Assembly: GCA_039591655.1 (NCBI GenBank)
Contig: JBDHDE010000054.1
Coordinates: 1-17,132 of the forward strand
Source: Gemmatimonadota bacterium
Lineage (GTDB): Bacteria > Gemmatimonadota > Gemmatimonadetes > Gemmatimonadales > GWC2-71-9
Direction of reading: 5' to 3'
Length of the DNA: 17,132 nucleotides
The translations under genes were made by a program, and so were the position numbers. The stretch's first letter is position 1; each line of letters starts with the position of its first letter. Shown here piece by piece: positions 4,257 through 17,132 of this stretch. Under the pieces are notes generated by a model. That model was not told the origin of the DNA and searched no databases. It was given only the letters and a program-made list of their open reading frames with translations.

Positions 4257-6668
4257 TCAGGGATCTTTCGGCGACGCGGCGAGCCTGGCTTCTGCCCCTT
4301 CGAGCTGCACGCGGGGCAGGATCACGTCTTGGAACCGAGGAGTGTCCCGGATCGGGGCCAGGATGGGGTCCCAGACGTTGTACTGGACCCGGAACGGCAT
4401 GGCGAAGACCATCTCCTCCAGCTGGTCCAGCGCTCGATCCGGCTCCCCGAGCAACATCCACGTTTGAGGCAGAACCCGTCCTGCGCCCTCTGGCAAGAGC
4501 GTCTGGTCCCCGGCCTCCAGAGCCTCACCCTGCAGGCGGAAACCGGCGGAGTCGGGCAGGTAGGAACCGAACCGATCGATCGCTTCCCGGTATCGGCCGT
4601 CGAACAGCATCAGGCGGCCCAGGACAGTCCGGAGGAAGTGCATGTCTCCGGCCGTGTCCATCGCGATCCCCTCCTCCAAGAGCGCTTCGGCCTCTTCCGC
4701 GCGGTCGTTCATGTACAGTGTGAAACCCTGTATATCCAGGCGGACGGGTGCCCGGTCGAGGGCCAGCGCCCGGCCGCTCTCTCGCAGCGACTCGTCCAGG
4801 CGCCCCATACCCCAGAGCAGCTCCGCATACTGGGTGTGCGCCTCCTCATTGTCCGGATCGAGCTCCAGCGCCCGGATGAGCTCCCGTTCGCCGTCCGCCC
4901 ACTCCCACCGGTCGCGGTGGACTCCACCGAGAGCCACGCGGGCCGAAGCGTTCTGCGGGTCCAGCTCGAGCGCGCGCCGGGCCGCCGCCTCCGCCGCCGC
5001 GAGGCTACGTGCCCACACCGTGGAGTCCGTGGACTCGCCCCCCAGCCCCGTATACAGAGGGCTTATGGCGCGGGCCTCAGCCAGCCCCGCCCACGCCGGC
5101 GCCCACGTGGAGTCCCTGGCGACGGCCGCTTCGAAGAGGCGTACCGCCTCCCCGACCCCGGGGCCCCGTCGACGCATCGCCGCCCGTGCGTTCAAGTACA
5201 ACTCGTACGCATCCATGTCGAGCGTGGGGGAGACGAGCGCTTCCTGGCTCAGGCCGAGTGGAACGCGGAGTGCCTCGGTGATTGCCTCAGCGATCTCCGT
5301 CTGGATGGCGAAGATGCTCTCGAGCCGGCGATCGTACGTCTGCGCCCACAAGCGGAACCCGTCCAAGGTGCTCACGAGTTCGGCACTGATGCGTACCTGA
5401 TCCCCCTCCTTCCGGACGCTTCCGCCGAGGAGGTACGCCACACCGAGCTCCTCGCCGACCTGCCGCAGGTCCAAGCCCCGGTCCTTGTAGACGAATGCGG
5501 ACGAGCGGGCCGCGACTCGGAGGTCACGGATCTTGGACAGCACAGTGAGGATCTCCTCTGAGATACCATCACTGAAGTACTCCTGGTCACCTTCCGGGCT
5601 CATGTCGGCAAAGGGGAGCACCGCGATCGCCGGGCGGGGATCGTCGGCCAGGTCCGGATAGGTCAGGTCCGATCCCGCGATGGCCGCCCCCGTCGAATCT
5701 CCCGCCGAGGGTTCACCGCCGCCCCGTCCTAGAAGCGCCCATGCGAGTACGGCCACCGCTGCTACGGGAACGGCGATTCGAGCAGCGCGTGACCATGGAG
5801 ACGGTGTCGTCACCTCGGCCGCAGAAGCGACCGCAGCCTCGCCGACGAGTGCGTCCGCAAATGCTTTGGTGTTCTCGAAACGATCGGCCGGCACTTTGGC
5901 CAGGGCCTTGTCCACTGCGGCTTCGATGTGTACGGGCACGGTGTCACGGATCGTACGGAGCTTCACCGGCGTCTCGCCGACGATCTTGGCGACGACGGCC
6001 TGCACGTTGGACCCAGTGAACGGTGGGTCACCGGCCAGCATCTCATACAGGACGCTTCCCAGAGCGTAGATGTCGGTGGTGGGTCTGGCCTCGCGGTCAC
6101 CGGTTGCCTGTTCGGGACTCATGTAAGAGGGTGTACCGACCGACAGCCCGGTCGCTGTGATGCGGTCGCCAGCTACGTGGGCGACCGCGAGGGCGATGCC
6201 GAAGTCCGCCACCATAGGCGTGCCCTCGTGCAGCATGATGTTGTCGGGCTTGATGTCCCGGTGGATGACGTCGCGGCGGTGTGCATAATCCAGTGCTTCC
6301 GCCACCGCGCGCGTGATCGAGACCGCTTCCTCAACGGAGAGCTGCCGTTCCCGATCGATCTTGTCACGAAGGGACTCGCCCTCAACGAACGGCATCACGT
6401 AATACAGATCCCCGTCCGCCTCACCAGAATCGTAGAGCTGCACGATGTTGGGGTGATGGAGGTTGGCGGTGACCCGAATCTCGTTGAGGAAACGATCCGC
6501 TCCAAGCACCGCGGCAAGCTCGGGTAGCAGAACCTTGAGGGCCACCTGGCGGTGATGCTTGACGTCGTGGGCGAGATACACCGTGGCCATCCCACCGCTA
6601 CCGATCTCCCGCTCGACGGCGTAGCGGTCGGCGAGGGCTGCTTTGAGGCGGTCCAACTGATCGGTCAA
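4257..6668 (-). CDS. Hanks-type Ser/Thr protein kinase with TM segment, TolB-like domain and TPR repeats
   Basis: GSGGMATVY, VALK, HRDIKPDN, DFG and GTPSYMSPEQ; TM IAVPVAAVAVLAWALL; AIAVLPFADMSPEGDQEYFSDGISEEI; repeated RALELDP; TTG start preceded by GAGGT. Confidence 0.95.
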   Translation of the reverse strand: MTDQLDRLKAALADRYAVEREIGSGGMATVYLAHDVKHHRQVALKVLLPELAAVLGADRFLNEIRVTANLHHPNIVQLYDSGEADGDLYYVMPFVEGESLRDKIDRERQLSVEEAVSITRAVAEALDYAHRRDVIHRDIKPDNIMLHEGTPMVADFGIALAVAHVAGDRITATGLSVGTPSYMSPEQATGDREARPTTDIYALGSVLYEMLAGDPPFTGSNVQAVVAKIVGETPVKLRTIRDTVPVHIEAAVDKALAKVPADRFENTKAFADALVGEAAVASAAEVTTPSPWSRAARIAVPVAAVAVLAWALLGRGGGEPSAGDSTGAAIAGSDLTYPDLADDPRPAIAVLPFADMSPEGDQEYFSDGISEEILTVLSKIRDLRVAARSSAFVYKDRGLDLRQVGEELGVAYLLGGSVRKEGDQVRISAELVSTLDGFRLWAQTYDRRLESIFAIQTEIAEAITEALRVPLGLSQEALVSPTLDMDAYELYLNARAAMRRRGPGVGEAVRLFEAAVARDSTWAPAWAGLAEARAISPLYTGLGGESTDSTVWARSLAAAEAAARRALELDPQNASARVALGGVHRDRWEWADGERELIRALELDPDNEEAHTQYAELLWGMGRLDESLRESGRALALDRAPVRLDIQGFTLYMNDRAEEAEALLEEGIAMDTAGDMHFLRTVLGRLMLFDGRYREAIDRFGSYLPDSAGFRLQGEALEAGDQTLLPEGAGRVLPQTWMLLGEPDRALDQLEEMVFAMPFRVQYNVWDPILAPIRDTPRFQDVILPRVQLEGAEARLAASPKDP

Positions 6669-6714
6669 GCGGGGACCTCGGCTGAAGCTGCCCTAAGGTA
6701 CGGATCGGTTGACG

Positions 6715-6818
6715 GTTAGGCTAACAAGTTTGGCACACTACTGGCACACAAATGCCGAGAGCGGGCGGATCAGCCTCGACCCGCTTGCCCCCTAACTTGT
6801 TTCGTTGAGTTGAGTTAC
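6715..6818. repeat. Possible island-end region: GTTAG-G-CTAAC palindrome, TGGCACAC direct repeats and an AT-rich TAAC...GTTA segment
   Basis: GTTAGGCTAAC at 6715-6725; TGGCACAC at 6731-6738 and 6742-6749 (11-bp period); taacttgtttcgttgagttgagttac at 6793-6818. Confidence 0.4.
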
Positions 6819-6838
6819 GCTAGCCGGGACGGCCGTCC

Positions 6839-6863
6839 CAGCTGCATGGCCTTGTTAGGCGGC
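6839..6863 (-). mobile_element. Half attC site (gene-proximal R''-L'' half)
   Basis: Minus strand reads GCC-GCCTAAC-AAGGC-CATGCAGC-TG (R'', 5-bp spacer, 8-bp L''), matching 14541-14562; lies just downstream of the SnoaL remnant. Confidence 0.7.
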
Positions 6864-6884
6864 CCGCTAGATGAGATCGTACTC

Positions 6885-7080
6885 TCAACCTCTGGCCGTA
6901 ATCTTCCCGGCCGTTTCTGCAGTCCACAGGATATAGGCGTAGTCGCCTTCTACCGATTGAGTCGTCATCGTAAACGAACTACCCGGCTTTCCAAACTCGG
7001 CTAGCATCGACTCGAACAACGGCTTGATGGCGTCGGGGCCCATCAGTGGCCCATCCGGAGTGAAAAGGACTGCATCTGCT
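6885..7080 (-). pseudogene. Truncated, internally deleted SnoaL/NTF2-family gene (cassette remnant)
   Basis: ADAVLFTPDGPLMGPDAIKPLF...VEGDYAYILWTAET joins directly to AGKITARG*. The family N-terminal helix and the final D-T-F...GKI strands (recalled consensus) are absent. Confidence 0.6.
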
Positions 7081-7166
7081 CCCTGTGTGGGTTGCTTTAG
7101 GGTGACGATCCAAGCTGGCACGTCCACGTTAGCCATTCCGAGGAAACCGCCGCGGGGCCTTGCTTT

Positions 7167-7266
7167 CCGACATTATGGCATGCAGTCTGCGGCAATGCAC
7201 GGCTCGGCGCCAACGGCGTGGAACTTCCTCTAGATTCCGCGCGCCTCCGCAGCGGTGACGTTAGGG
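7167..7266 (-). mobile_element. Degenerate attC-like site
   Basis: CGCCTCCGCAGC at 7242-7253 is identical to 14533-14544 and 15244-15255; GTTAGGG at 7260-7266; acttcctctaga resembles acttcctttaga in the 15724 site; gcatgcagtctgcgg is a possible eroded left arm. Confidence 0.5.
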
Positions 7267-7321
7267 GGTGCGGCGTAGGCGGCCCATACTGAGCCCTCGC
7301 GACGTCCGATGCCGGCGATCC

Positions 7322-8278
7322 CTACCGCTCCCGAAACCTCTCTGCATAACCGCTCTTCCGCAGGAAATCCTGGTAGTCGGTGATGGAGAGAATCTCCTGA
7401 ACCGCCTGTGTCTTGTCTTCGGCAGCCGCGTAGAAGGACTCCGCGATCCTCGCGCCCATCACGTAGCCGAGATCGACGGGCTGGTCGGGATCGCTTGGCT
7501 TCGCGAACATCCAGTCCCCAGGGCGCTCGTTGTTCATCTCGCTCTCGAACCGGGTCCACAGCGCCCGTTCGTTCTCGATCAGGTAGTCGTGGGCCGCCTT
7601 CTTGGCGTATGCTCCGGTACTCAGGTAGGTGAGGTACTCGGCGATGCCCTCCCTGAGGGCGAGGGAGAGGAGGCTCATCTTCGGGCCGAAGACCTGCATG
7701 TACTCCTCCATCCCAACGGTCAGCGCCTGCTGCACGTGAACCGTCTCGTGCACTAAGACGAGCCTGACCACAGAGGGATCTGAAGCCAGCTCCGTCATCG
7801 CAATCAACAACCCGTATTCGGACGGCTCGGCGTGGAGGCCCGCATGTCCGATCCCGACGAAGTAGTAGACAGGAATGAAGGCAGTGTTCGGGACTATGTC
7901 CCTGAGTCCTCTGAACGCATCGCGAACCGCTTCCTCTTGCGATGCGAGCTGGCCTTTCAGGTCCCTCAGCGCCACGAATTGGCTGGTCCTCTCACGGATC
8001 GCTGCGAGGAAGTCCCCGGCCCCGAGATCGTTCGCTCGGACGTATTCACTGAGCCCTGGGCTGGCCTTGTCGAGATACTCGGCTTGCAGGACCGCAGTGG
8101 AATCGACCTGATCTTCCATCACGTCGAGGGCTCGCACGAAGTTGGCCAGGTCATCGTAGCTCAGCAGGACCTCGGCAGGATCGTTCGTGATCTCGCACAG
8201 GAGCTGTGCCTTAACAGCCGTTTGAGGTGAAACCAGGCAGATAAACGCGAGAGCAGCAATGCAAGCCGTGGTCTTCAT
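7322..8278 (-). CDS. Secreted putative Zn-dependent protease (DUF2268/GldB-like, HExxH)
   Basis: LVLVHETVHVQQ, downstream EGIAEY, DLGYVMGARIAESFY; signal peptide MKTTACIAALAFICLVSPQTAVKA; GGGAGGG upstream of ATG 8278. Confidence 0.75.
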   Translation of the reverse strand: MKTTACIAALAFICLVSPQTAVKAQLLCEITNDPAEVLLSYDDLANFVRALDVMEDQVDSTAVLQAEYLDKASPGLSEYVRANDLGAGDFLAAIRERTSQFVALRDLKGQLASQEEAVRDAFRGLRDIVPNTAFIPVYYFVGIGHAGLHAEPSEYGLLIAMTELASDPSVVRLVLVHETVHVQQALTVGMEEYMQVFGPKMSLLSLALREGIAEYLTYLSTGAYAKKAAHDYLIENERALWTRFESEMNNERPGDWMFAKPSDPDQPVDLGYVMGARIAESFYAAAEDKTQAVQEILSITDYQDFLRKSGYAERFRER

Positions 8279-8402
8279 GATTCTGTCCCTCCCATTCCCT
8301 TGTGACCCACTCCTCTGCCTTTCACAATCCCCGACTCTCCCGAGCCAGCCGTTCATCTCAAGGGTTGCGCCTCGGTAGAGTCGGCGATGCCGGCGCGGCT
8401 GT

Positions 8403-9083
8403 CTACCCCTCCCCCAGCACCATCTCGCACATCAGGCTGGAGCCGTCGACTTCCGTAGTCCGACACTCAAGCCCACAGCCCGCAGCCATCAGGTGAAAGT
8501 CCTCGGGCGCCATCGCACGTGCTTGAAAGCCGTCCCGGCATGCAATAACCCCATCCCCAGTGCCCGCATAGTCAATCTCACCGACTAGTCCGTGCGCCGC
8601 CTGGATTCTGAACCACTCCAGTCGACGCTCCCAGAACCTGGCTGCGTAGCTCGAGAACAGCACTCTTCCACCAGGGCGCGTTACTCTGACAGCCTCGCTG
8701 GCTAGCCGCTGAGGATCCACACCAAAGACCGCAACACCGTTCTGGATGCACACGACGACGTCGAACTGCGCGTCCCGAATCCCCAAGTCGCCAGCGTTCA
8801 TGCGGCTGAGGCCGCATGTCGCCCTGTTAGGCAGGAGCTGGCGCGCGAGCCGCAGGCTGTCGTGGGACGTGTCAATGCCGAGCACGTACTCCGCCTTCTC
8901 GGCTACTCTTTGCAGAACGCGTCCATATCCACAGCCGAGCTCCAAGAAACGGTGATCGCGATCGACGCGGTCCGCCACGAACTCGACTTCCGCCATCAGA
9001 TACTGTTGGACTCGCGGCGGGGCAAGTTCGTAGCATTGCCGCAGCCGGGCACCCGATAAGGCCGTGGCGTAGTAGTCCTGCAT
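8403..9083 (-). CDS. Class I SAM-dependent methyltransferase
   Basis: Motif I FLELGCGYG, VLGIDTS, FDVVVC, RVTRPGGRVLF; GAGG upstream of ATG. Confidence 0.9.
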   Translation of the reverse strand: MQDYYATALSGARLRQCYELAPPRVQQYLMAEVEFVADRVDRDHRFLELGCGYGRVLQRVAEKAEYVLGIDTSHDSLRLARQLLPNRATCGLSRMNAGDLGIRDAQFDVVVCIQNGVAVFGVDPQRLASEAVRVTRPGGRVLFSSYAARFWERRLEWFRIQAAHGLVGEIDYAGTGDGVIACRDGFQARAMAPEDFHLMAAGCGLECRTTEVDGSSLMCEMVLGEG

Positions 9084-9117
9084 GGCCTCAATACAGAGAC
9101 GGCCGCTGTGCGGCGCA

Positions 9118-9143
9118 GGCTAACGGCTTCGCGCATGAGCTAC
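9118..9143 (-). mobile_element. Half attC site (L'-R' half) upstream of the methyltransferase
   Basis: + strand GGCTAAC-GGCTTCGCG-CATGAGCTAC aligns with 15127-15153 and 15724-15749; no matching second arm before the stop codon at 9183. Confidence 0.7.
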
Positions 9144-9182
9144 GTGCTGCCGCTCGGCAGCGCCCGAGCGCAGCGTCTTGAG

Positions 9183-9584
9183 TCAGTCTGTGGGCTGAGG
9201 CCACGCGATCATTACCACACTTTCCGTCTCATCGTACTTGACAACGATGGTGACCTCTCGATCGCCCCTCTGGGTTTCCAGGGTCGCCGTCATCGCACCC
9301 AAGTTCACCTCCGACACGCTAGTCCAGTCCCTGTTCGCGGGCCGCGAGATGATGTCAGCCAGCTCAAGTGTTTGTTGCTCGTCTCCAATCTCCATGATCA
9401 CGCGGGTCTCTTCAGCGCGCCACACACCCATGTCGACTCCCGAGTCGAGGACGGCCTTCCAGCCACCGCCCTCCAGTCTGCTGAATCGGATCATCGCCTG
9501 ATCGGAGCGTATTGTGAAGCTGCCAGCGTCTGGCGGTACGAAATGCACGCCGAGGAAGAACATGACCGTCATGATCACCGGCAT
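9183..9584 (-). CDS. Hypothetical protein with hydrophobic N-terminus, beta-rich (alternative start 9602)
   Basis: The ORF fills the gap between the half attC and the repeated block; AAAGGTGG lies upstream of ATG 9584; no family recognised. Confidence 0.6.
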   Translation of the reverse strand: MPVIMTVMFFLGVHFVPPDAGSFTIRSDQAMIRFSRLEGGGWKAVLDSGVDMGVWRAEETRVIMEIGDEQQTLELADIISRPANRDWTSVSEVNLGAMTATLETQRGDREVTIVVKYDETESVVMIAWPQPTD

Positions 9585-9628
9585 GGGATTCCCACCTTTC
9601 ATTTGAGAGGCAGCAACGCCGCGGCCAG

Positions 9629-9764
9629 GTGGGCGGGATTACCCTAAAAGAGTGCAGCCAAAACCCTCATTCGGCTAGGTCATCTGGGGGCATCGAGTGC
9701 CCCACCTACGAGGTCCCGGAATCCTGCAACAAGTCGGGTTCAATATCGGTGAGTTGTCTGGTGA
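9629..9764. repeat. Internally deleted copy of the 16709-17080 junction region
   Basis: 9629-9692 matches 16709-16772 at 56/64; the GGGGCA-N5-TGCCCC hairpin is conserved; 9713-9757 matches 17029-17073 at 40/45; the tRNA fragment in between is missing. Confidence 0.9.
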
Positions 9765-9894
9765 GTAGCCAAGGCCACAATGAATGCCCCTACCAGGGCT
9801 GACTGAGCGCTGCACGTAAGTTCGACAGACCCGCTTCACAATCCGCTTGCACACCGGCTCCCAAGCTGCACCTTTAAGGAGGAGTGTGAGAGGC

Positions 9895-10731
9895 ATGAGA
9901 ACGGTTCTGACCTACGTTCTGATCGCCGGGTTGCTGTCGACGAACGCAAGCACGCAGGCAGTCCCCGGTCAGGGTGGCGACCACGCGACCGTGTGGTACC
10001 TGCGCCATGCAGCCTGGGCGGTACGCCTTGGCGGCGCGCTGCTGGTCTTCGATTACCAAGAGTCGCTTGGGATGGAAGACGTCACTGCCGACACTCCGCG
10101 CAATCTCGAGAATGGACTCATCGATCCTCGAGAGATCAGCGATCTCGACGTGTTCGTCTTCGTGACACACGCCCACGGTGACCATTACGACCCCGCTATC
10201 TTCGAGTGGCAGGGCGAGATCGAGAACCTCACATACTTCATCGGGTGGGACGAACAGCCGGAGTCGCACTGTGAACGGTTCACCGGAGCCGACGCCGACT
10301 GTCACACCATGGGGGGATTGCGGGCAACGGTCGAGTCGGGTGACATCCAGGTCTACACTATCGATTCCGATCATAACGACATTCCCGAAGTGGCATACCT
10401 GGTCCGCTACGGTGACTGGATTGTGTATCACAACGGCGACTACATGGCCGAGCACGTTGATGACTACGCCTATCTTAAGACGATCAGCGACCGAATCGAC
10501 GTGGCGTTCGTGGCTGGGCTTCCGGGCCACAGATGGCCTCACTTGGCTCGGGCCGTTCACCTGGCTCGCGAGTTTGATGTGCCGGTGCTGTTCTCGATGC
10601 ACTTCCGCGATCGTGAGATGTGTGAGCGTTTCGTGGCTGAGGTGGCGGCGCAGGGTGTGAGCGCCGAGGTCAAGTGCCCGACGGCGCGGGGGCAGCGGTT
10701 CGTGGTGGCGAAGGGCGGTAGCGGGCGGTAG
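9895..10731 (+). CDS. Secreted MBL-fold metallo-hydrolase (UlaG/YtkL-like)
   Basis: HxHxDH motif THAHGDH; YHNGD; FSMHF; signal peptide; AAGGAGG/GAGAGG upstream of ATG 9895. Confidence 0.88.
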   Translation: MRTVLTYVLIAGLLSTNASTQAVPGQGGDHATVWYLRHAAWAVRLGGALLVFDYQESLGMEDVTADTPRNLENGLIDPREISDLDVFVFVTHAHGDHYDPAIFEWQGEIENLTYFIGWDEQPESHCERFTGADADCHTMGGLRATVESGDIQVYTIDSDHNDIPEVAYLVRYGDWIVYHNGDYMAEHVDDYAYLKTISDRIDVAFVAGLPGHRWPHLARAVHLAREFDVPVLFSMHFRDREMCERFVAEVAAQGVSAEVKCPTARGQRFVVAKGGSGR

Positions 10732-10760
10732 GGCGACCTTGGGGCTTGACCTCCGCTGTG

Positions 10761-10783
10761 GCTACCAGCTATCAGCTATCAGC
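10761..10783. repeat. Short heptamer tandem repeat (GCTAYCA x3)
   Basis: gctacca-gctatca-gctatca-gc between convergent genes. Confidence 0.6.
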
Positions 10784-10814
10784 CGGGAGGTGACTGCTCT
10801 CGAGGATGTGGATC

Positions 10815-13616
10815 CTATGCGCCTCTCTTGCCCATAACGGCGCTAAGTACCTTCTCTGCCGTTATCGGCAGATCATAGATCCTCACCCCGGTTGCGTCGG
10901 CGACCGCGTTGGCTATCGCACCCAAGACCGGCAGTGTTGCTCCCTCTCCAACCTCTTTGGCTCCAAAGGGCCCCTCTGGCTCGTAGCTGTCCACGAGCGA
11001 GCAATCGATGACGGGAGAGTCCATCGTCGTCGCCATCAAGTAGTTGTGCAAATCCGCATTGACAATCTTGCCGTTGCTATCGAATACCTCATTCTCAAGA
11101 AGCGTCTCGCTCAGGCCCATGACCACCGCACCTTCGACTTGTCCTTCAACGGCCAAGGGATTGATGGCGGTGCCGCAGTCGTGGGCGTCCCAGAAGTTGA
11201 GGACTTTGACCTTGCCGGTTTCCATGTCCACCTCGACTTCACACACGGCGGCAGAGAATGAGTAGGCAGGCGACGTGCCTACGGCGGCTCCTTTGTACTT
11301 GCCGCCTAACCCCCTCGGTGGCGAATAGTGACCTTTGCCAACCAGTGGACCATTCTCCGCAAAGAACGCGGTGGCCGCTTCGTGCCAGGAGATCGCCTTT
11401 TCAGGATCATCTTTGACGAACACCTTGTTGGCTCTCGCGTCCAACCTCTCTTTCGGCACTTCGAGTAGCTCCGCCGCTGCGGACAGAACCTGCGCCTTGA
11501 CTTCTTCACCGGCCATTTGGGACGCGTTGCCACCCATCAAGGTCACGCGACTGGAGTAGGCGCCGAATCCTAAAGGCGTCGTATCACTGTCTGCGGAGAC
11601 GACGTCGACACGATCAAGCGTGATGCCCATGGCCTCCGCCGCCATTTGCGCGAGCACGGTATCGGCGCCCTGTCCGATGTCCGCCTCGCCGCTGAACAGG
11701 ACGGCTTTCGATCCATCTTCCGCGACCTTGATCATCGCGTTGGAATGGGGGAACCGCGACCGGTAGATAGGGTACCCTGCGCCCGATACGAAGCCCCCGC
11801 ATCCGATACCGATGCCCCTCCCGCGAGGGAGCTTGCCCTTCTTATCGTCCCAGCCGGACTTCTCACGGACTCGCTCGAGACATGCCTTGAACTCGCACGA
11901 ATGGACGTCGAGATCGTTGCAGGTACGCGTCTCCGGTTCCATGGCATTCTTCACACGTATCTCAATGGGATCCATCCCGATGTCGTCCGCAATCATGCTG
12001 AGGAGGGACTCGAACGCAAATCGCGGATGAGGACAGCCGTGACCACGCATGGCACCGCAGGGAGGGAGATTCGTGTTCACACGGTACCCGTCATACTTGT
12101 AGTTGTGAATCTTGTAAAGCGTCGGAATCATGGAACCCGCATAATACGCGGTCACGACACCGAAGCTCGAATAGGCTCCTCCCTCGAGTACGGCCTTCTG
12201 CTTGACCGCCGTGATCGTGCCGTCCTGCTTGACGCCAATCGTCAAGTCGATGGTCTGCTTATGGCGCCCCCTTCCATAGAAGTACATCTCTGCGCGACTG
12301 AACCGCATCTTGACCGGGCGTCCTGCCTTCTTCGATAAGAGGATCGAGACGATCTCCAGGGGGTTGGTCGCCGCCTTCGCACCGAAGCCACCGCCGGTAT
12401 TGTGCATGACGACCCGAATCCTGCCTAGAGGGATTCCCAGGACCCGGGACAGCTGGTGGTGCACGTAATGGACGACCTGCGTCGAGGTGTAGAGCGTGAC
12501 CTTACCATGGTCGTCCCATTCGGCAATGGCGCAGTGGGGCTCCATGGGGTTCTGGCAGACTCGATTCCCCACGAATGTCGCTGTTCTTACGTGATCCGCC
12601 TCCGCGAGTCCCTTTTCGACGTCCCCGAAGTGGTGATCCACGCGCGTGTTGATGTTGTTCTCGTATTTGTGGTCAAAGAGTCTGGGAGCACCCTCTTTCA
12701 TGGCTTGGTGAGGGTCGAAGACGGCGGGAAGCTCTTCGTACTCGACATCAATCAGGTTGAGAGCCTTGTAGCAGGTTTCCTCGTCCACAGCCGCAACAGC
12801 CGCAACCACATCGCCCACGAACCGCACCTTGTCCTTCGCCAGAACGGTCTCGTCGTAACGCGCCGGGGAGGTGCCATAGGTGATGTCCGGCGTGTCCCGT
12901 CCTGTCATCACTGCATGAACACCACGAAGTGCCTCCGCCTTCCTGGTGTCGACTGACGTGATGTTGGCGTGAGGAACGGGGCTCAGGAGGAGCTTCCCAT
13001 AGATCATGTTTGGCAGAACAATGTCGTCTGTGTAGACTGCTCTACCGGTTGCCTTCGCGGGTGCATCGGGTTTCGGGAGACGTTTCCCGACCACCGAGAG
13101 CCCGGCCGCCGACTCTTGCGTGGGGATATCCGACTTTCCAGGCTCCTGGCCTCGAAGGTAGAGGGCGGCTGACTGTGCCGCCTCGATGATCTTCGTGTAC
13201 CCCGTGCATCGGCAGAGATTCCCACTGAGCGCCGCCCTTATCTCATCAGCCGTCGGTTGGGGATTGGCATCGAGGAGAGCCTTGGTGCGCACCACCAGTC
13301 CTGGCGTACAGAACCCACACTGGATAGCACCAGCCTCCACCAAGGCTCGTTGAACGGGATGAAGTCCGTCGCCGCTGGCTATTCCCTCGATGGTGGTGAC
13401 TTGCCTCCCCTCGGCCTCGAGAGCGAGCATCAGACACGAGTTCACCGCTCTGCCATCCACGAGCACCGTACAAGCTCCACAGTCGCCCAGCTCACAGCCC
13501 CTCTTCGCTCCGGTCAATCGGAGCTCGTCACGAAGCACATCGAGCAGCGTGGCCCCAGGCCTCACCGCTACTTCCTGAGCGCTGGCGTTGACCGTTAGGG
13601 CGACAATCTGCTTCAT
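10815..13616 (-). CDS. Xanthine oxidase-family molybdoenzyme: 2x[2Fe-2S] domain fused to the molybdopterin-binding large subunit (resembles 4-hydroxybenzoyl-CoA reductase alpha)
   Basis: GCELGDCGACTV..C, QCGFCTPG, GNLCRCTGY; Mo-binding motifs TSTQ, GGGFGAK, GAMRGHG, GQG, AYSSR; GPFGAKEVGE with the conserved Glu. Confidence 0.93.
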   Translation of the reverse strand: MKQIVALTVNASAQEVAVRPGATLLDVLRDELRLTGAKRGCELGDCGACTVLVDGRAVNSCLMLALEAEGRQVTTIEGIASGDGLHPVQRALVEAGAIQCGFCTPGLVVRTKALLDANPQPTADEIRAALSGNLCRCTGYTKIIEAAQSAALYLRGQEPGKSDIPTQESAAGLSVVGKRLPKPDAPAKATGRAVYTDDIVLPNMIYGKLLLSPVPHANITSVDTRKAEALRGVHAVMTGRDTPDITYGTSPARYDETVLAKDKVRFVGDVVAAVAAVDEETCYKALNLIDVEYEELPAVFDPHQAMKEGAPRLFDHKYENNINTRVDHHFGDVEKGLAEADHVRTATFVGNRVCQNPMEPHCAIAEWDDHGKVTLYTSTQVVHYVHHQLSRVLGIPLGRIRVVMHNTGGGFGAKAATNPLEIVSILLSKKAGRPVKMRFSRAEMYFYGRGRHKQTIDLTIGVKQDGTITAVKQKAVLEGGAYSSFGVVTAYYAGSMIPTLYKIHNYKYDGYRVNTNLPPCGAMRGHGCPHPRFAFESLLSMIADDIGMDPIEIRVKNAMEPETRTCNDLDVHSCEFKACLERVREKSGWDDKKGKLPRGRGIGIGCGGFVSGAGYPIYRSRFPHSNAMIKVAEDGSKAVLFSGEADIGQGADTVLAQMAAEAMGITLDRVDVVSADSDTTPLGFGAYSSRVTLMGGNASQMAGEEVKAQVLSAAAELLEVPKERLDARANKVFVKDDPEKAISWHEAATAFFAENGPLVGKGHYSPPRGLGGKYKGAAVGTSPAYSFSAAVCEVEVDMETGKVKVLNFWDAHDCGTAINPLAVEGQVEGAVVMGLSETLLENEVFDSNGKIVNADLHNYLMATTMDSPVIDCSLVDSYEPEGPFGAKEVGEGATLPVLGAIANAVADATGVRIYDLPITAEKVLSAVMGKRGA

Positions 13617-13631
13617 CCCGAATACCTCGTC

Positions 13632-14513
13632 CTACCTTCTCACGCGACCAAGGGCCACACTGAGTGCGCGGCGGGCGAGAATCGCGGTGATCTCCCGGCG
13701 GAACTCCGCGCTACCACGGATATCGGCGATAGGCTCAGCGTCCTCTGCAACGGCTTGTCCGACCAGTTTCGATAGAGCACTTCCCTCCGCAATATCCGAA
13801 ATCGGTTTGCCTCTTATGAGCTCCACCGCACTAGTTGAGACTTTCGGAGTCGGAGCCACCGCTCCCATGACGAAGCGCACGTCCTGACACTGCTCGCCGA
13901 CGACTCGGACCACGACTGCAATGGAGGCGACTGCTACGTTGGCCGCTTCTCGCAAGCCGAACTTCTTGAAAGCTGCCCCCGTTCCCGGTCCAGGGATAGG
14001 AACGATAATCCTTCTCAGTATCTCGCCCCTCTTGAGCGCTGCCTTCCGGTGATCGACGAAGAACTCCGCAAGTGGGAGCGTCCTCTGTCCTTGGCTGCCG
14101 CACATCTCGATTTCCGCACCGAGCGCGATGAGTATCGGAGCAGAATCTGCGCAAGATGCCGCGGTACAGAGGTTACCCCCAACGGTAGCCGTATTTCTTA
14201 TCTGTTCCGTGGCGATGGCCTCAGCTGCCTCGCTAAGGGCGTAACAGTGCTCTTGGATGAGCGATGAATGGATGAGTTGATTGTGGGTAACGGCTGCACC
14301 GATGACTAGTGTGTGCTCCTGCACGCCAATGGAGCGTAGTTCCTGTATGCGCGTCAGGGAGATGACATCCTGATGAAAGCGCTTTCCCTGCTTCAGCTCT
14401 ACGAGTAGATCGGTGCCACCAGCAAGAAGGACACCGTTTGGACTCGTCTCCAGAAGATGACAGGCCTCGCCGAGTGTCTCGGGCCGGTGATAGCGGAAAT
14501 CGGAGATGTACAC
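13632..14513 (-). CDS. FAD-binding medium subunit (CoxM/CutM-type) of a molybdenum hydroxylase; GTG start at 14513
   Basis: YHRPETL, LAGGTDLL, QIRNTATVGGNL, AD..P, GAVAPTP, PIADIRGSAEFRR. The ORF extension to 14567 only runs through the half attC. Confidence 0.92.
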   Translation of the reverse strand: MYISDFRYHRPETLGEACHLLETSPNGVLLAGGTDLLVELKQGKRFHQDVISLTRIQELRSIGVQEHTLVIGAAVTHNQLIHSSLIQEHCYALSEAAEAIATEQIRNTATVGGNLCTAASCADSAPILIALGAEIEMCGSQGQRTLPLAEFFVDHRKAALKRGEILRRIIVPIPGPGTGAAFKKFGLREAANVAVASIAVVVRVVGEQCQDVRFVMGAVAPTPKVSTSAVELIRGKPISDIAEGSALSKLVGQAVAEDAEPIADIRGSAEFRREITAILARRALSVALGRVRR

Positions 14514-14532
14514 GGTAGTTTCTCTTGGCTGG

Positions 14533-14562
14533 CGCCTCCGCAGCTGCATGCGCCTGTTAGGT
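14533..14562 (-). mobile_element. Half attC site (R''-L'') overlapping the stop codon of the SRPBCC-like gene
   Basis: Minus strand ACCTAAC-AGGCG-CATGCAGC-TGCGGAGGCG; the TAA in R'' is the gene's stop; R'' is the exact complement of GTTAGGT at the cassette start (15133-15127). Confidence 0.8.
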
Positions 14563-15120
14563 CGCACCCGCAGCGCTCGCGCGCGCAGAGAACCAGGGAT
14601 GTGTCCCGAACTGATCTCGAGGCACGGCCTCGCCTCGGGTCACGTACCACTCAAAGCCTCGCACAACTGATGACAAGTACTTCGTGAGCATGGGACGAAG
14701 GCGCAACCTGTGTGGGAGCCAGCGAATCACCACAGGCACCTGTTGCAGCACGTGCGGGTACACCGCAATTCGGAGCGTGGATTCGCCTGTGGCATTCGGG
14801 AGGATTCTCCACGAGACGAACGACATTCTGCCGGCACGCGTACCTATCTCAAGGTCATAGCCGACCCCGTCGATCCACCGACAGAACCGGCGCTCGAAGA
14901 CCCACCCACTGAGGTAGTGAATCTCATCCCGGGAGGCTTCACCAGGCCAGACATCTACAGGGTTCTTGGCACAGAACGGGTGACACAGCTCGAGATTCCC
15001 AGGAAGGGAGATAGCCTCCCACAGCTTATCCGCTGGTGCTGCGATTGGTGCCGCGACAGCAACTGGCCACTTGAAGCCTGGCTTCGGGTCATCCACCTCG
15101 GCGACTGGACGGACGGACAT
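14557..15120 (-). CDS. SRPBCC/START-like (polyketide cyclase-like) protein, gene cassette (187 aa)
   Basis: IAAPADKLWEAISLPGNLELCHPF N-terminal pattern and C-terminal helix; ATG 6 bp after GTTAGGT; stop inside ACCTAAC. Confidence 0.72.
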   Translation of the reverse strand: MSVRPVAEVDDPKPGFKWPVAVAAPIAAPADKLWEAISLPGNLELCHPFCAKNPVDVWPGEASRDEIHYLSGWVFERRFCRWIDGVGYDLEIGTRAGRMSFVSWRILPNATGESTLRIAVYPHVLQQVPVVIRWLPHRLRLRPMLTKYLSSVVRGFEWYVTRGEAVPRDQFGTHPWFSARASAAGAT

Positions 15121-15126
15121 GTGTCC

Positions 15127-15273
15127 ACCTAACGGTTTTCCCGCATGAGCTGCGGGCGACCCGCACTCGATGCGCAGCGTTGCCTGAGCGTTCATGGAGC
15201 TCGCCTGCCACTCCAACGGAACTCTCCCCTAGTCAACGTGTCACGCCTCCGCAGCTCCATGCGCGTGTCAGCC
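15127..15273 (-). mobile_element. Full-length attC site (147 bp), R'' mutated (GGCTGAC)
   Basis: + strand ACCTAAC-GGTTTTCCCG-CATGAGCTGCGGGCG ... CGCCTCCGCAGCTCCATG-CGCGT-GTCAGCC; arms pair with one extra base in L'' and further bulges. Confidence 0.85.
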
Positions 15274-15286
15274 GGCATTCGCCATG

Positions 15287-15469
15287 CTACTTCCGTCTCG
15301 CGCTGGTGAGACCGCCGCCCACCACAATGATGGTAGCTGCAGCGCCGCCACCAAGGATCAGCAACAGTTTGTCGTACAGCGGGGAGCCACGTGCAACTGA
15401 CGCAACTGCGGCGATCACGGCTGCCCAAATGATGGCGACTGCGATGAGGACGATACCGCTTCTTAGCAT
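15287..15469 (-). CDS. Small two-TM membrane protein (60 aa), gene cassette
   Basis: Two hydrophobic stretches, basic C-terminus; GGGGAG upstream; fills the space between two attC-like sites. Confidence 0.72.
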   Translation of the reverse strand: MLRSGIVLIAVAIIWAAVIAAVASVARGSPLYDKLLLILGGGAAATIIVVGGGLTSARRK

Positions 15470-15491
15470 ACGCCGGGCTCCCCTGTGGAAC

Positions 15492-15523
15492 GCCGTCTAA
15501 CGACTTCGCGCGGGTTAGACGGC
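15492..15523 (-). mobile_element. Collapsed mini-attC (R boxes only)
   Basis: Perfect 10-bp inverted repeat GCCGTCTAAC / GTTAGACGGC around 12 bp (GACTTCGCGCGG); no L boxes. Confidence 0.78.
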
Positions 15524-15527
15524 CCGC

Positions 15528-15701
15528 TTACTGATACCGGATCGCGTAGTAGATGACGTAGATCCATGACAAGATGCCGTGGATGATCGCCCAAATGATC
15601 GACTTGTTGGCGCTCCACGAGATCACGATGGCAAGAGCGGTGCCAAACCCGATCCCGACTTTAGCGGCGTCCTTGGAGCCAGCCATCCTTACCTCGGCCA
15701 T
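15528..15701 (-). CDS. Small membrane protein (57 aa; 52 aa from ATG 15686), gene cassette, not in the ORF track
   Basis: MAEVRMAGSKDAAKVGIGFGTALAIVISWSANKSIIWAIIHGILSWIYVIYYAIRYQ*; AAGGA/GAGGT SD candidates; bounded by GTTAGAC and GTCTAAC. Confidence 0.8.
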   Translation of the reverse strand: MAEVRMAGSKDAAKVGIGFGTALAIVISWSANKSIIWAIIHGILSWIYVIYYAIRYQ

Positions 15702-15723
15702 GTGGTAAGTCCTTTGCGGGTCC

Positions 15724-15873
15724 GTCTAACGGTTTCGCGCATCACCTGCGGGCGTTCTCCCCGCCAGGCGCGCTGTTTGATCAATGACCGGACCTGGATG
15801 GCCCGAGGCGCTCATATCAACGACTTCCTTTAGAAACGTGCTGCGCCTCCACAGGTGCATGTGCGTGGCAGAC
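15724..15873 (-). mobile_element. Full-length attC site (150 bp), R'' mutated (GTCTGCC)
   Basis: + strand GTCTAAC-GGTTTCGCG-CATCACCTGCGGGCG ... CGCCTCCACAGGTGCATG-TGCGT-GGCAGAC; the L arms co-vary relative to the 15127 site. Confidence 0.85.
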
Positions 15874-15881
15874 GGCAAACC

Positions 15882-16556
15882 TCACTTCTGGTCCGTGAGG
15901 GCCCAACCACGGGAGGTTCGGATGACGAGCGTGGTGTCCTGGTAATAATCCGTGAACGGCCAGACGCGCGTCAGCCGGATCGTGTCCAGCGATTGCCAGA
16001 GCACCTCCTGCGGCTCCCACTGCTCAGGCTCCACGGACCATTCCCGCACGAGGGTGTCACCACTGACGGCCCAGATGGTCAGCCGGTTTGGCCCGTACTG
16101 CGCCTCCAAATCCCCCGACGCGACGGCGAAACGGCTGCCATCGGGCGAGGGTGCCGGGACGTCATCCACGGCGAACACTGTTCCCGTCTCGGCGTGCACC
16201 AATCGCACCGAACTACCCTCAAAGTACTGCACCCACAAGGTGTGGTACGGCGGCTCCCTAAAGGTGCCGATGTACCAGGCCCGACTTTGCCACGAGGGGT
16301 GGCCGACCGCCCGCGGCGTGCAGCCAGACCACCCCTGGCCAGTGAAGCAGATGCTGTCCTCCGATACTCGAATGACTCCGGCGGCCACACCCAGCTTGTC
16401 TTCTTGGATCGCTGCGGCACACCGCTCGCTATTGTGGATCTCCTGGCACAGACCGCGTCCCCATGTGACGTCTGTGACTGGTGGGTAGGGCTGTTGCTCC
16501 GCGCACGCAGAGAAGCCGGCAATGGCCAGAAGCAAGATGAGTCGGGATACGTTCAC
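15882..16556 (-). CDS. Hypothetical lipoprotein (224 aa), first cassette of the array; GTG start at 16556
   Basis: MNVSRLILLLAIAGFSAC lipobox; SPDGSRFAV beta-blade-like motif; start 8 bp after GTTAGGC. Confidence 0.75.
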   Translation of the reverse strand: MNVSRLILLLAIAGFSACAEQQPYPPVTDVTWGRGLCQEIHNSERCAAAIQEDKLGVAAGVIRVSEDSICFTGQGWSGCTPRAVGHPSWQSRAWYIGTFREPPYHTLWVQYFEGSSVRLVHAETGTVFAVDDVPAPSPDGSRFAVASGDLEAQYGPNRLTIWAVSGDTLVREWSVEPEQWEPQEVLWQSLDTIRLTRVWPFTDYYQDTTLVIRTSRGWALTDQK

Positions 16557-16564
16557 GGTTTGCC

Positions 16565-16590
16565 GCCTAACTCCCAATATCGGGCTTCCT
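16565..16590 (-). mobile_element. Candidate attI site
   Basis: Minus strand GAAGCCCGATATTGGGA-G|TTAGGC precedes the first cassette; a perfect core with none of the L-box arm sequence of the local attC family. Confidence 0.45.
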
Positions 16591-16708
16591 CTCCCGCATC
16601 CCTGCACCCAACGACCACATAATCGCTCTTCTCCCACACATACGCAGCGCAGGGTGTCCGATAATGCGCCGTCGGATAACGTGGCATCTGCTGCGTCCGC
16701 GGTGCCGT

Positions 16709-16783
16709 GTGGGCGGGATTACCCCGATAGAGTGCAGCCGGGACCCTGATTCGGCTAGGTCATCTTGGGGCAGGAGCTGCCCC
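16709..16783. repeat. Conserved non-coding block, second copy at 9629-9703
   Basis: 56/64 identity plus a conserved GGGGCA-N5-TGCCCC hairpin. Confidence 0.85.
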
Positions 16784-16830
16784 GTCTGGGACATGACTCC
16801 ACCGGCCGGTCATGACTACTGGAGAAAGTC

Positions 16831-16848
16831 CGGTGAGAAGTTCGGTGA
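16831..16848. repeat. Arm-type-like direct repeats (CGGTGA, 12-bp period)
   Basis: CGGTGAGAAGTTCGGT matches 17063-17078 at 15/16; a related copy lies at 9747-9764. Confidence 0.6.
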
Positions 16849-16868
16849 CCTCCCAGCCAAGAGAAGAC

Positions 16869-16895
16869 GCCAGACGACCTAAGCGGTTGTCTGGC
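16869..16895 (-). terminator. Hairpin downstream of the tRNA fragment, putative terminator
   Basis: GCCAGACGACC-TAAGC-GGTTGTCTGGC (10/11 stem), followed on the minus strand by GTCTTCTCTT. Confidence 0.5.
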
Positions 16896-16908
16896 ATTTG
16901 GTTACCAA

Positions 16909-16953
16909 GTCGGGTACGGCGGGGTTTGAACCCGCGACCCCCTGAACCCCATC
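16909..16953 (-). tRNA. 3' half of tRNA-Pro(GGG); att-site remnant, not a complete tRNA
   Basis: Minus strand GATGGGGTTCAGGGGGTCGCGGGTTCAAACCCCGCCGTACCCGAC: anticodon loop ATGGGGT, T-arm GCGGG-TTCAAAC-CCCGC, acceptor 3' strand ending CCCGAC; no D-arm or 5' acceptor strand. Confidence 0.85.
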
Positions 16954-17004
16954 AATGCCCACCAGCACCCCATTTCCGACAACCCGCAGGGTTTTCGCGG
17001 GAAG

Positions 17005-17078
17005 ATCCTGCAAGATGCCGTCCCTTAAGTCCCCGAATCCTGCAACATGCCGGGTTCAATCTCGGTGAGATGTTCGGT
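17005..17078. repeat. Direct repeats on the distal side of the tRNA fragment
   Basis: ATCCTGCAAGATGCCG (17005-17020) and ATCCTGCAACATGCCG (17037-17052), 15/16, 32-bp period; CGGTGAGATGTTCGGT at 17063-17078. Confidence 0.65.
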
Positions 17079-17093
17079 ATATGGTGAAATCGT

Positions 17094-17131
17094 TACAATA
17101 GAGTCCCGTGTCACTGATCATGTAGGAGGTA
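17094..17131 (+). promoter_or_regulatory. Possible -10 element and Shine-Dalgarno for a + strand gene starting just beyond the window
   Basis: TACAAT at 17094-17099; AGGAGGT at 17124-17130; no clear -35. Confidence 0.4.
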
Positions 17132-17132
17132 G

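Follow-up and report, generated by a model that had tools for sequence, protein, structure and literature searches.

A partly decayed integron cassette array headed by a predicted attI platform on a tRNA-Pro island of a Gemmatimonadota bacterium

How does an integron cassette array without an integrase of its own come to lie between the arms of a tRNA-targeted island? This question is raised by contig JBDHDE010000054.1 of a Gemmatimonadota bacterium (assembly GCA_039591655.1, lineage GWC2-71-9), which we analyzed over its entire 17,132 bp (hereafter the window). The bin comprises 3.31 Mb at 95% completeness and 67.5% GC, and the sequencing runs containing the contig are marine sediment metagenomes, with no RNA dataset listed among them. 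attC clusters without an integron-integrase (CALINs) outnumber complete integrons and are usually taken as silent leftovers, partly because attI sites cannot be searched for. Overall, we find that the window holds a real, partly decayed CALIN headed by an attI platform on a tRNA-Pro island, a pattern that recurs in the family; its parts are known and their arrangement appears to be new. Below, G000 denotes the window's own genome, other G numbers relatives, C numbers contigs, and W1 the window platform. Tallies of searches include unpublished genomes, and no other claim rests on those genomes.

The leader of the cassette array is a predicted attI platform

The array in question (array 1) belongs to a segment termed unit 1 (16907-9713), which runs from arm B of an island through a promoter, attI, four cassettes and other cargo to arm A, and lacks the far tRNA core. 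Its head and cassettes are as follows.

16729..16795, minus strand: predicted activator-dependent cassette promoter, a 42-bp box (16795-16754) and a -10 element (16734-16729)
16565..16728, minus strand: predicted attI platform with R-box-like repeats at 16679 and 16664 and a G/TT crossover at 16571 (co-alignment with post-intI spacers)
15882..16556, minus strand: cassette 1, a 224-aa predicted lipoprotein (no Pfam or NCBIfam match)
15724..15873, minus strand: attC 1, full length with degenerate R'' (L 14.6, R 30.5, fold z -2.4)
15528..15686, minus strand: cassette 2, a 52-aa hydrophobic protein (translation)
15495..15520, minus strand: attC 2, collapsed to R'' and R' boxes with no hairpin (by eye, unscored)
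15287..15469, minus strand: cassette 3, a 60-aa hydrophobic protein (no Pfam match)
15127..15273, minus strand: attC 3, full length with degenerate R'' (L 16.1, R 29.3, fold z -1.8)
14557..15120, minus strand: cassette 4, a 187-aa protein with a weak polyketide-cyclase/SRPBCC-like match (PF10604, E 0.002, below cut-off)
14533..14562, minus strand: attC 4, left half only (score 26.5)

IntI-like matches were detected in 117 of 201 family genomes, and at most of the 30 intI loci that we read by eye the intI stop was followed, on the same strand, by a spacer, a GTTAG crossover and a gene. The window leader matched C97:6776-6918, directly downstream of a 5'-truncated integron integrase, with a score of 133 against a shuffled maximum of 29. 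Only C97 beat the shuffles in that test; G083 and G179 were added by multiple alignment, in which the spacer aligned across W1, C97, G083 and G179 up to the GTT crossover, with homology over ~230 bp, well beyond the promoter box. Because the leader is homologous to the spacers between intI and cassettes in this family, we identify it, on sequence homology, as the promoter and putative attI platform of an inverted-integrase integron, its GTT crossover heading array 1. An earlier, sequence-only reading of the window had described this leader as a conserved repeated block: its recurrence with an att junction and cassettes held, and the block is now identified as a promoter and platform.

Alternatively, the cassettes may have been inserted off-target at an attG-like secondary site, the leader being a mere island promoter. 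The box is indeed found before many ordinary genes, and W1 has a degenerate L box and does not match the commoner attI motif. Yet the homology to post-intI spacers extends past the box and up to the crossover, and we regard off-target insertion as very improbable.

BLAST of the leader against 301 genomes of the order yielded only 6 weak matches outside the own genome, so that profiles were needed. A leader pattern run over genome_contigs gave a single match, in an unrelated organism, and an Rfam scan of the window returned no match at E up to 1. The leader as a structured RNA, oriT or transposon end was also considered and dropped, as it aligned with promoter regions and post-intI spacers.

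For attC sites, we used our own matrices (not IntegronFinder), built from 27 attC sites at 6 loci of relatives, with 95th percentiles of shuffled maxima of 14.7 (L) and 16.4 (R). The matrix scores of array 1 bear out the integrase-less attC-family sites proposed earlier, two of them at full length where a CALIN has at least two in a cluster. Owing to the degenerate R'' boxes, a strict attC heuristic identified no true site in the window. When cassette ends were compared, the outer 9 nt of the start of cassette 1 complemented its own end at 9 of 9 positions, versus 3-6 for other ends; the cognate pair was favored or tied for cassettes 2 and 3, and the test failed for cassette 4.

The 42-bp box displayed a 21-bp period (0.60 versus at most 0.37), with an A/T-rich element ~21 bp later. 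Direct repeats of 21 bp across the -35 region are in keeping with AraC-family activators, and by analogy we consider this a predicted AraC-type box to which such a regulator may bind; with the -10-like element that follows, the conserved box would form the cassette promoter (Pc). A matrix built from 18 sites in other genomes identified 9 box sites in the own genome, versus 0 and 2 in two shuffles, and 5 of the 9 were attI platforms. The best site, on contig C20, has a divergent HTH_18 gene on one side and a gene for a small secreted peptide on the other. The 42-bp motif model matched 13 of 151 genomes, mostly before ordinary genes, and the motif is found family-wide, also away from tRNAs and attC sites. 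The tie of the repeated blocks to tRNA-Pro and attC, on which the earlier reading had staked its proposal, thus partly fails.

As a separate observation, an AraC-family regulator gene at the C20 site (G000:C20 13058; L162:2257-3341, also L113, L114 and L130) is divergently paired with a gene for a small predicted lipopeptide that ends in a GSGT-like motif, and this pairing is conserved. The pair, which in G000 adjoins a TPR-like gene, is possibly a signalling module heading a promoter-box regulon.

Unit 1 lies in a tandem array of tRNA-Pro islands

The island features surrounding array 1 are as follows.

17029..17078, minus strand: arm A, a pair of arm-type direct repeats plus flank that closes the upstream island, itself unassembled (89% identity to 9713-9757)
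16908..16952, minus strand: 3' part of tRNA-Pro(GGG), forming the att core at the attP-like joint of two stacked islands (identity in 43 of 45 columns)
16812..16907, minus strand: arm B, start of unit 1, with a repeat pair at 16848-16832 (homology to C95, G152 and G160)
9713..9764, minus strand: arm A again, at the far end of unit 1; the core and the following arm are deleted
9619..9712, minus strand: second promoter copy, first half-site lost, no attI
6885..9602, minus strand: decayed array of unit 2, with a 139-aa ORF, an attC right half, a methyltransferase, a 318-aa protein and a SnoaL-like fragment
6820..6860, minus strand: attC left half fused to a 14-bp tRNA-Pro 3' end remnant (6833-6820)
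6725..6819, minus strand: arm belonging to a different tRNA-Pro island family; a Ser/Thr kinase gene (6668-4257) comes next

The tRNA-Pro(GGG) 3' fragment seen in the sequence-only reading was confirmed: it corresponds to tRNA positions 33-76 of a same-genus tRNA, with one extra base. Its two flanks recur fused and without the core, as had also been noted, at 9619-9703 (83%) and 9713-9757 (89%). Direct-repeat pairs with a 12-bp period and a single orientation lie at 17078 and 16848, on either side of the core, and at 9764, giving unit 1 such repeats at both ends (16848 and 9764). We call them arm-type after lambda-like integrases, as putative sites of integrase binding. In G096 the arm A pair stands before tRNA-Pro cores at three places, runs X1 and X2 contain another arm A copy, and arm B homologues lie downstream of Pro cores in C95, G152 and G160. 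The tRNA duplication itself varies among boundaries, with a 45-bp core at the near end of unit 1, none at 9713 and the 14-bp remnant at 6833-6820.

In relatives, an intact tRNA-Pro is followed by further 3' fragments, each flanked by repeat pairs, and several relatives carry a tyrosine integrase. The arm at 6725-6819 follows Pro cores in G077, G140, G119, G166 and G083, and in G140 the kinase gene is again next. Since relatives show this organization and the left end of the region holds both the remnant and an arm, positions 6725-17132 can be read, from sequence comparison, as lying in a tandem island array. The earlier proposal of tandem tRNA-Pro islands is thus supported, with an attP-like junction and the same arm repeat on both sides of its core. 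ARAGORN detected no tRNA-Pro(GGG) in the whole assembly, in which fragments occur on four contigs, and an arm B pattern search of metagenome_contigs returned one contig, without a platform.

That each copy of the leader heads a cassette array did not hold. The copy at 9619-9764 consists of arm A fused to a promoter without its first half-site and has no attI. The array that follows it (array 2) contains no whole attC, only a right half at 9146-9118 (21.7), a left half at 6860 (20.7) and a weak remnant near 7265, and on its own would not count as a CALIN. Unit 2 is a relic.

We also considered whether the tandem layout and half sites could be a misassembly within a metagenome bin. The contig terminates in a repeat, and hairpins and tRNA repeats break assemblies. 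The 14532 junction is covered by a mere 11 bases on one side, and among the unitigs listed from runs X1-X4 and X6 none bridges it or the joint of core and arm B. However, the two copies differ by 11-17%, and unitigs from these runs span most junctions at even depth, with independent unitigs bridging 15601-16829, 16765-16895, 16931-17078, 9649-10098, 7338-9601 and 6600-6897 (the bridging runs may include the window's source sample). We judge a misassembly to be extremely unlikely.

To the right, a contig extending the window was not found in the assembly. The last segment (17095-17132) carries a -10-like hexamer and a ribosome-binding-like sequence directed off the contig end, and its ~2x depth in run X1 suggests a repeat. 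Several relatives (L095, L106, L107 and L108) carry tRNA-Pro(GGG) copies split near the anticodon by palindromic inserts, which may be genuine insertions or an assembly artefact.

The genome assembly holds only truncated IntI and island-integrase genes

Next, we examined integrases. A PF00589 search of the genome returned 4 matches, none of them on the window contig, consistent with the earlier statement that the window encodes no tyrosine recombinase. Unit 1 accordingly lacks the integrase gene that a tRNA island would carry, and attI has no intI adjacent to it as it would in a complete integron; the contig ends 560 bp upstream of attI, with the tRNA att junction in between. The sole intI of the assembly is the 5'-truncated fragment on C97 (IntI residues 127-331; TIGR02249 above cut-off), and the island-integrase genes of the assembly are likewise truncated. 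The arm pattern matched 34 of 301 genomes, was exact and tRNA-linked only in G096 and the window, and led to no cognate integrase among them.

Integrase-less platforms recur at tRNAs in the genome and its relatives

The own genome contained 8 platform matches, 7 of them without intI. Three of these 7 lie behind a tRNA-Leu(TAG) 5'-side arm (C9 and twice on C5) and one behind the Pro arm; among the other three, two are within 3 kb of tRNA-Ile or of a Pro fragment and one sits between two Leu junctions. Expressed as distances, attI was within ~450 bp of a tRNA junction for 4 of 7 platforms, against 1.2% of the genome, and within 3 kb for 6 of 7, against 6.3% of the genome. The recurring unit of att junction, leader and cassettes, as first proposed for the window, hence also occurs at tRNA-Leu(TAG) in the own genome and beside tRNAs in relatives.

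Across the family, an attI core pattern gave 39 matches in 25 of 201 genomes. We examined 27 loci outside the own genome, having excluded the own genome's 5, two unpublished genomes and 5 without a locus: 7 had intI or a remnant upstream, 4 had <400 bp upstream, and 16 remained with ≥700 bp upstream. For 5 of these 16 intI-less sites, a tRNA or fragment lay within ~500 bp upstream (Gln, Ala, Leu-TAG, Leu-TAA and Pro-GGG; binomial 3e-6 to 8e-5, values that overstate the case, since tRNAs are gathering points for acquired DNA in general and the genomes, being related, are not independent). In addition, the family attI motif headed attC arrays in 9 of 16 intI-less contigs examined. Matches of model R2 in G088, G085, G138, G002, G042 and G019 looked like chance and were dropped.

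Several related arrays were observed along the way. The tRNA-Leu(TAG) array (G000:C5 2300-19000 and C9 400-6732; L160, L161) contains four attI platforms and no integrase, and duplicates the tRNA 5' half and upstream region rather than the 3' end. An attI core lies within a tandem tRNA-Ser array in L292 (G083:C3 1447-8377), and L289 (G053:C101) has a pair of attI platforms in tandem, spaced by 1.4 kb, which lie behind an arm-like repeat and without a tRNA match. Further attC arrays, many of half sites only, occur on G000:C105, C107, C130, C137, C33 and C35, on which no platform was found.

Exchange at the promoter box or erosion in place

We give a modest preference to the reading that unit 1 is an integrase-less integron platform (attI, four cassettes and a predicted promoter) set between tRNA-Pro arms, the tandem array as a whole being likely in decay and no longer mobile. 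The islands would have entered via ordinary tyrosine-integrase recombination at the tRNA, with the integrase since lost or encoded by a neighbor. The platform would likely have been joined to an island end at the 42-bp promoter box, common to island ends and integrons. As the predicted promoter is located downstream of intI rather than within it, loss of intI would leave a platform still transcribed and loadable; its cassettes would be loaded by an IntI encoded elsewhere, and its promoter likely switched on by the AraC-family regulator of contig C20. Later deletions would have taken cores, attC halves and the second attI. Three observations are relevant to the proposed exchange. The tRNA-Leu arm of C5 is identical to that of G152:C200 up to the first half-site of the box and then diverges; the G152:C200 tRNA-Leu island carries non-cassette genes and a 417-aa integrase after the box; and arm B with the box but without attI occurs in G152:C249 and G008:C25.

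The main rival is erosion of intI in place: a whole inverted-integrase integron came with the island, or sat by the tRNA, and lost intI from its 5' end, the box being no exchange point. The platform closest to W1 is C97 (66% identical, support 0.90), which keeps a 5'-truncated intI, and such 5'-eroded remnants were verified at C97 (127-331), G076:C27 (222-331) and G152:C46 (299-327). Many deletions are visible in the array, and 1 of 20 intI loci (G162:C3) has a tRNA-Gly directly upstream of intI. Conversely, none of the 20 has a tRNA-Pro or tRNA-Leu arm in the upstream DNA examined (~7 kb in most), the arm-box junction is present in islands without attI, and three independent deletions to the same base (C9, C5) would be less simple than one inherited joint. 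We thus hold erosion in place to be the less probable course, though a serious one. Under either mechanism the platform could outlive intI, since the promoter lies downstream of it.

A third possibility, the view of the earlier reading, is that the units are still live non-autonomous elements that depend on a helper tyrosine integrase to excise and integrate, and are reloaded in trans by IntI. That unit 1 bears one and the same arm repeat on either side, that runs X1 and X2 contain a further arm A copy, and that related tRNA-Leu platforms head different first genes would all fit. However, unit 1 has lost its far core and carries an additional base in the near one, unit 2 is without attI, arm B and the greater part of its core, assembled helpers are truncated only, and the copies are 66-89% alike, hence not recent. 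We consider live elements improbable. No circle joint was found among assembled contigs of the runs examined, and joints between attC halves were treated as other attC copies rather than excisions. With its far core deleted, unit 1 is likely immobile now, and present mobility of units 1 and 2 is unlikely.

A number of observations weigh against the exchange reading itself. The W1 arm-to-box spacer is not homologous to the G152 or G008 spacer. Among relatives, 11 of the 16 intI-less attI sites have no tRNA just upstream, 5 of 7 intI-less platforms from platform-model and DNA searches have none in the DNA fetched, and of the 5 tRNA-adjacent cases 2 had arms recognized computationally, 2 had arms recognized only by eye, and the fifth had none. 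The R'' boxes are degenerate at both full-length attC sites, the window box is the weakest of the nine (score 15.3), and this genus is the only one in which an AraC-type box lies ahead of attI (1 of 27 loci). The assembly contains no intact helper, its IntI being limited to residues 127-331; the own genome and the relatives examined yielded no integrase for arms A and B and no island that combines an integrase of its own with an attI platform.

Relation to known systems

Published precedents exist for CALINs, for inverted integrases and, in one cryptic prophage, for an attI-headed CALIN. In a 2016 study (PMC4889954), CALINs are defined by at least two attC sites with no intI nearby, and intI loss or rearrangement is proposed as an origin; the window resembles those with intI elsewhere in the genome. 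It differs in that its array keeps a recognizable attI platform and predicted promoter and abuts a tRNA att arm, whereas that study describes attI as unsearchable in most integrons and Pc as unable to drive a split-off CALIN. The same study covers the inverted integron-integrase group (Treponema type), from which the window platform differs in being detached from intI and, in this genus, beginning with a predicted AraC-type box. For class 1 integrons, PMC8618304 places Pc within intI.

A further likeness is the cryptic Shewanella prophage M16-3 (PMC9892861), in which attI stands at the head of an array without intI, within an integrated element that has a dead integrase of its own. M16-3 is a single case, a prophage that also carries an intact intI; the window, in contrast, represents small tRNA islands that recur at several tRNAs and in different genera, and phage genes were not seen in it. 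A 'hitcher' framing for members of tRNA islands is available from PMC11389934.

Tandem islands targeted to tRNAs by tyrosine integrases, with accretion of the cis-mobilizable element (CIME) type, are a known class. The window shares with them the tRNA 3' duplication, arm-type direct repeats, attP-like internal joints and integrase-less decayed members, but its cargo slot is the recombination site of a second integrase family, and no conjugation or phage module was seen. In PubMed Central open-licence articles and bioRxiv, we came across no account of attI platforms recurring at the arms of tRNA islands or of a cassette promoter of the AraC type; CALIN tables in supplements could hold similar cases.

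The likely effect of platform recurrence is that the cell spreads gene-capture sites around its chromosome behind a predicted regulated promoter. If the platforms work, new cassettes could enter one cell at several first positions, and whole capture sites would be carried between loci or cells by island integrases. Here, a lineage-specific attI profile shows that many CALINs retain a docking site and predicted promoter, a share of them at tRNA island ends. The lineage also offers named parts (IntI, attI variants, promoter box and regulator) for studying in-trans loading and regulated cassette expression. More tentatively, the family may run a distributed integron in which tRNA islands serve as satellite docking stations (an activator-controlled promoter and attI), swapped at the AraC box and stacked at several tRNAs; one IntI would load them all in trans, and one regulator beside a secreted-peptide gene would switch the arrays on together, a scheme that we regard as possible and a good deal less secure than the reading of unit 1 itself.

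Other genes of the islands

Between the cassettes and the far arm A, unit 1 carries two further loci.

10815..14510, minus strand: non-cassette cargo, a xanthine-dehydrogenase-family molybdoenzyme (FAD subunit and fused Fe-S/Mo subunit), GC 59%
9895..10731, plus strand: non-cassette cargo, a metallo-beta-lactamase-fold protein (PF13483)

The fused Fe-S and Mo subunit of the low-GC molybdoenzyme operon is 933 aa long, and its best NCBIfam match, 4-hydroxybenzoyl-CoA reductase alpha, falls just under cut-off. Upstream of the metallo-beta-lactamase-fold gene, a 53-bp block (9818-9870) is 83% identical to G000:C6 539-591, downstream of tRNA-Pro(CGG), and is possibly a promoter motif. Finally, Ser/Thr kinase-TPR genes recur after tRNA island arms in the family (window 4257-6668; L039, L098, L151 and L160) and may therefore be island cargo.

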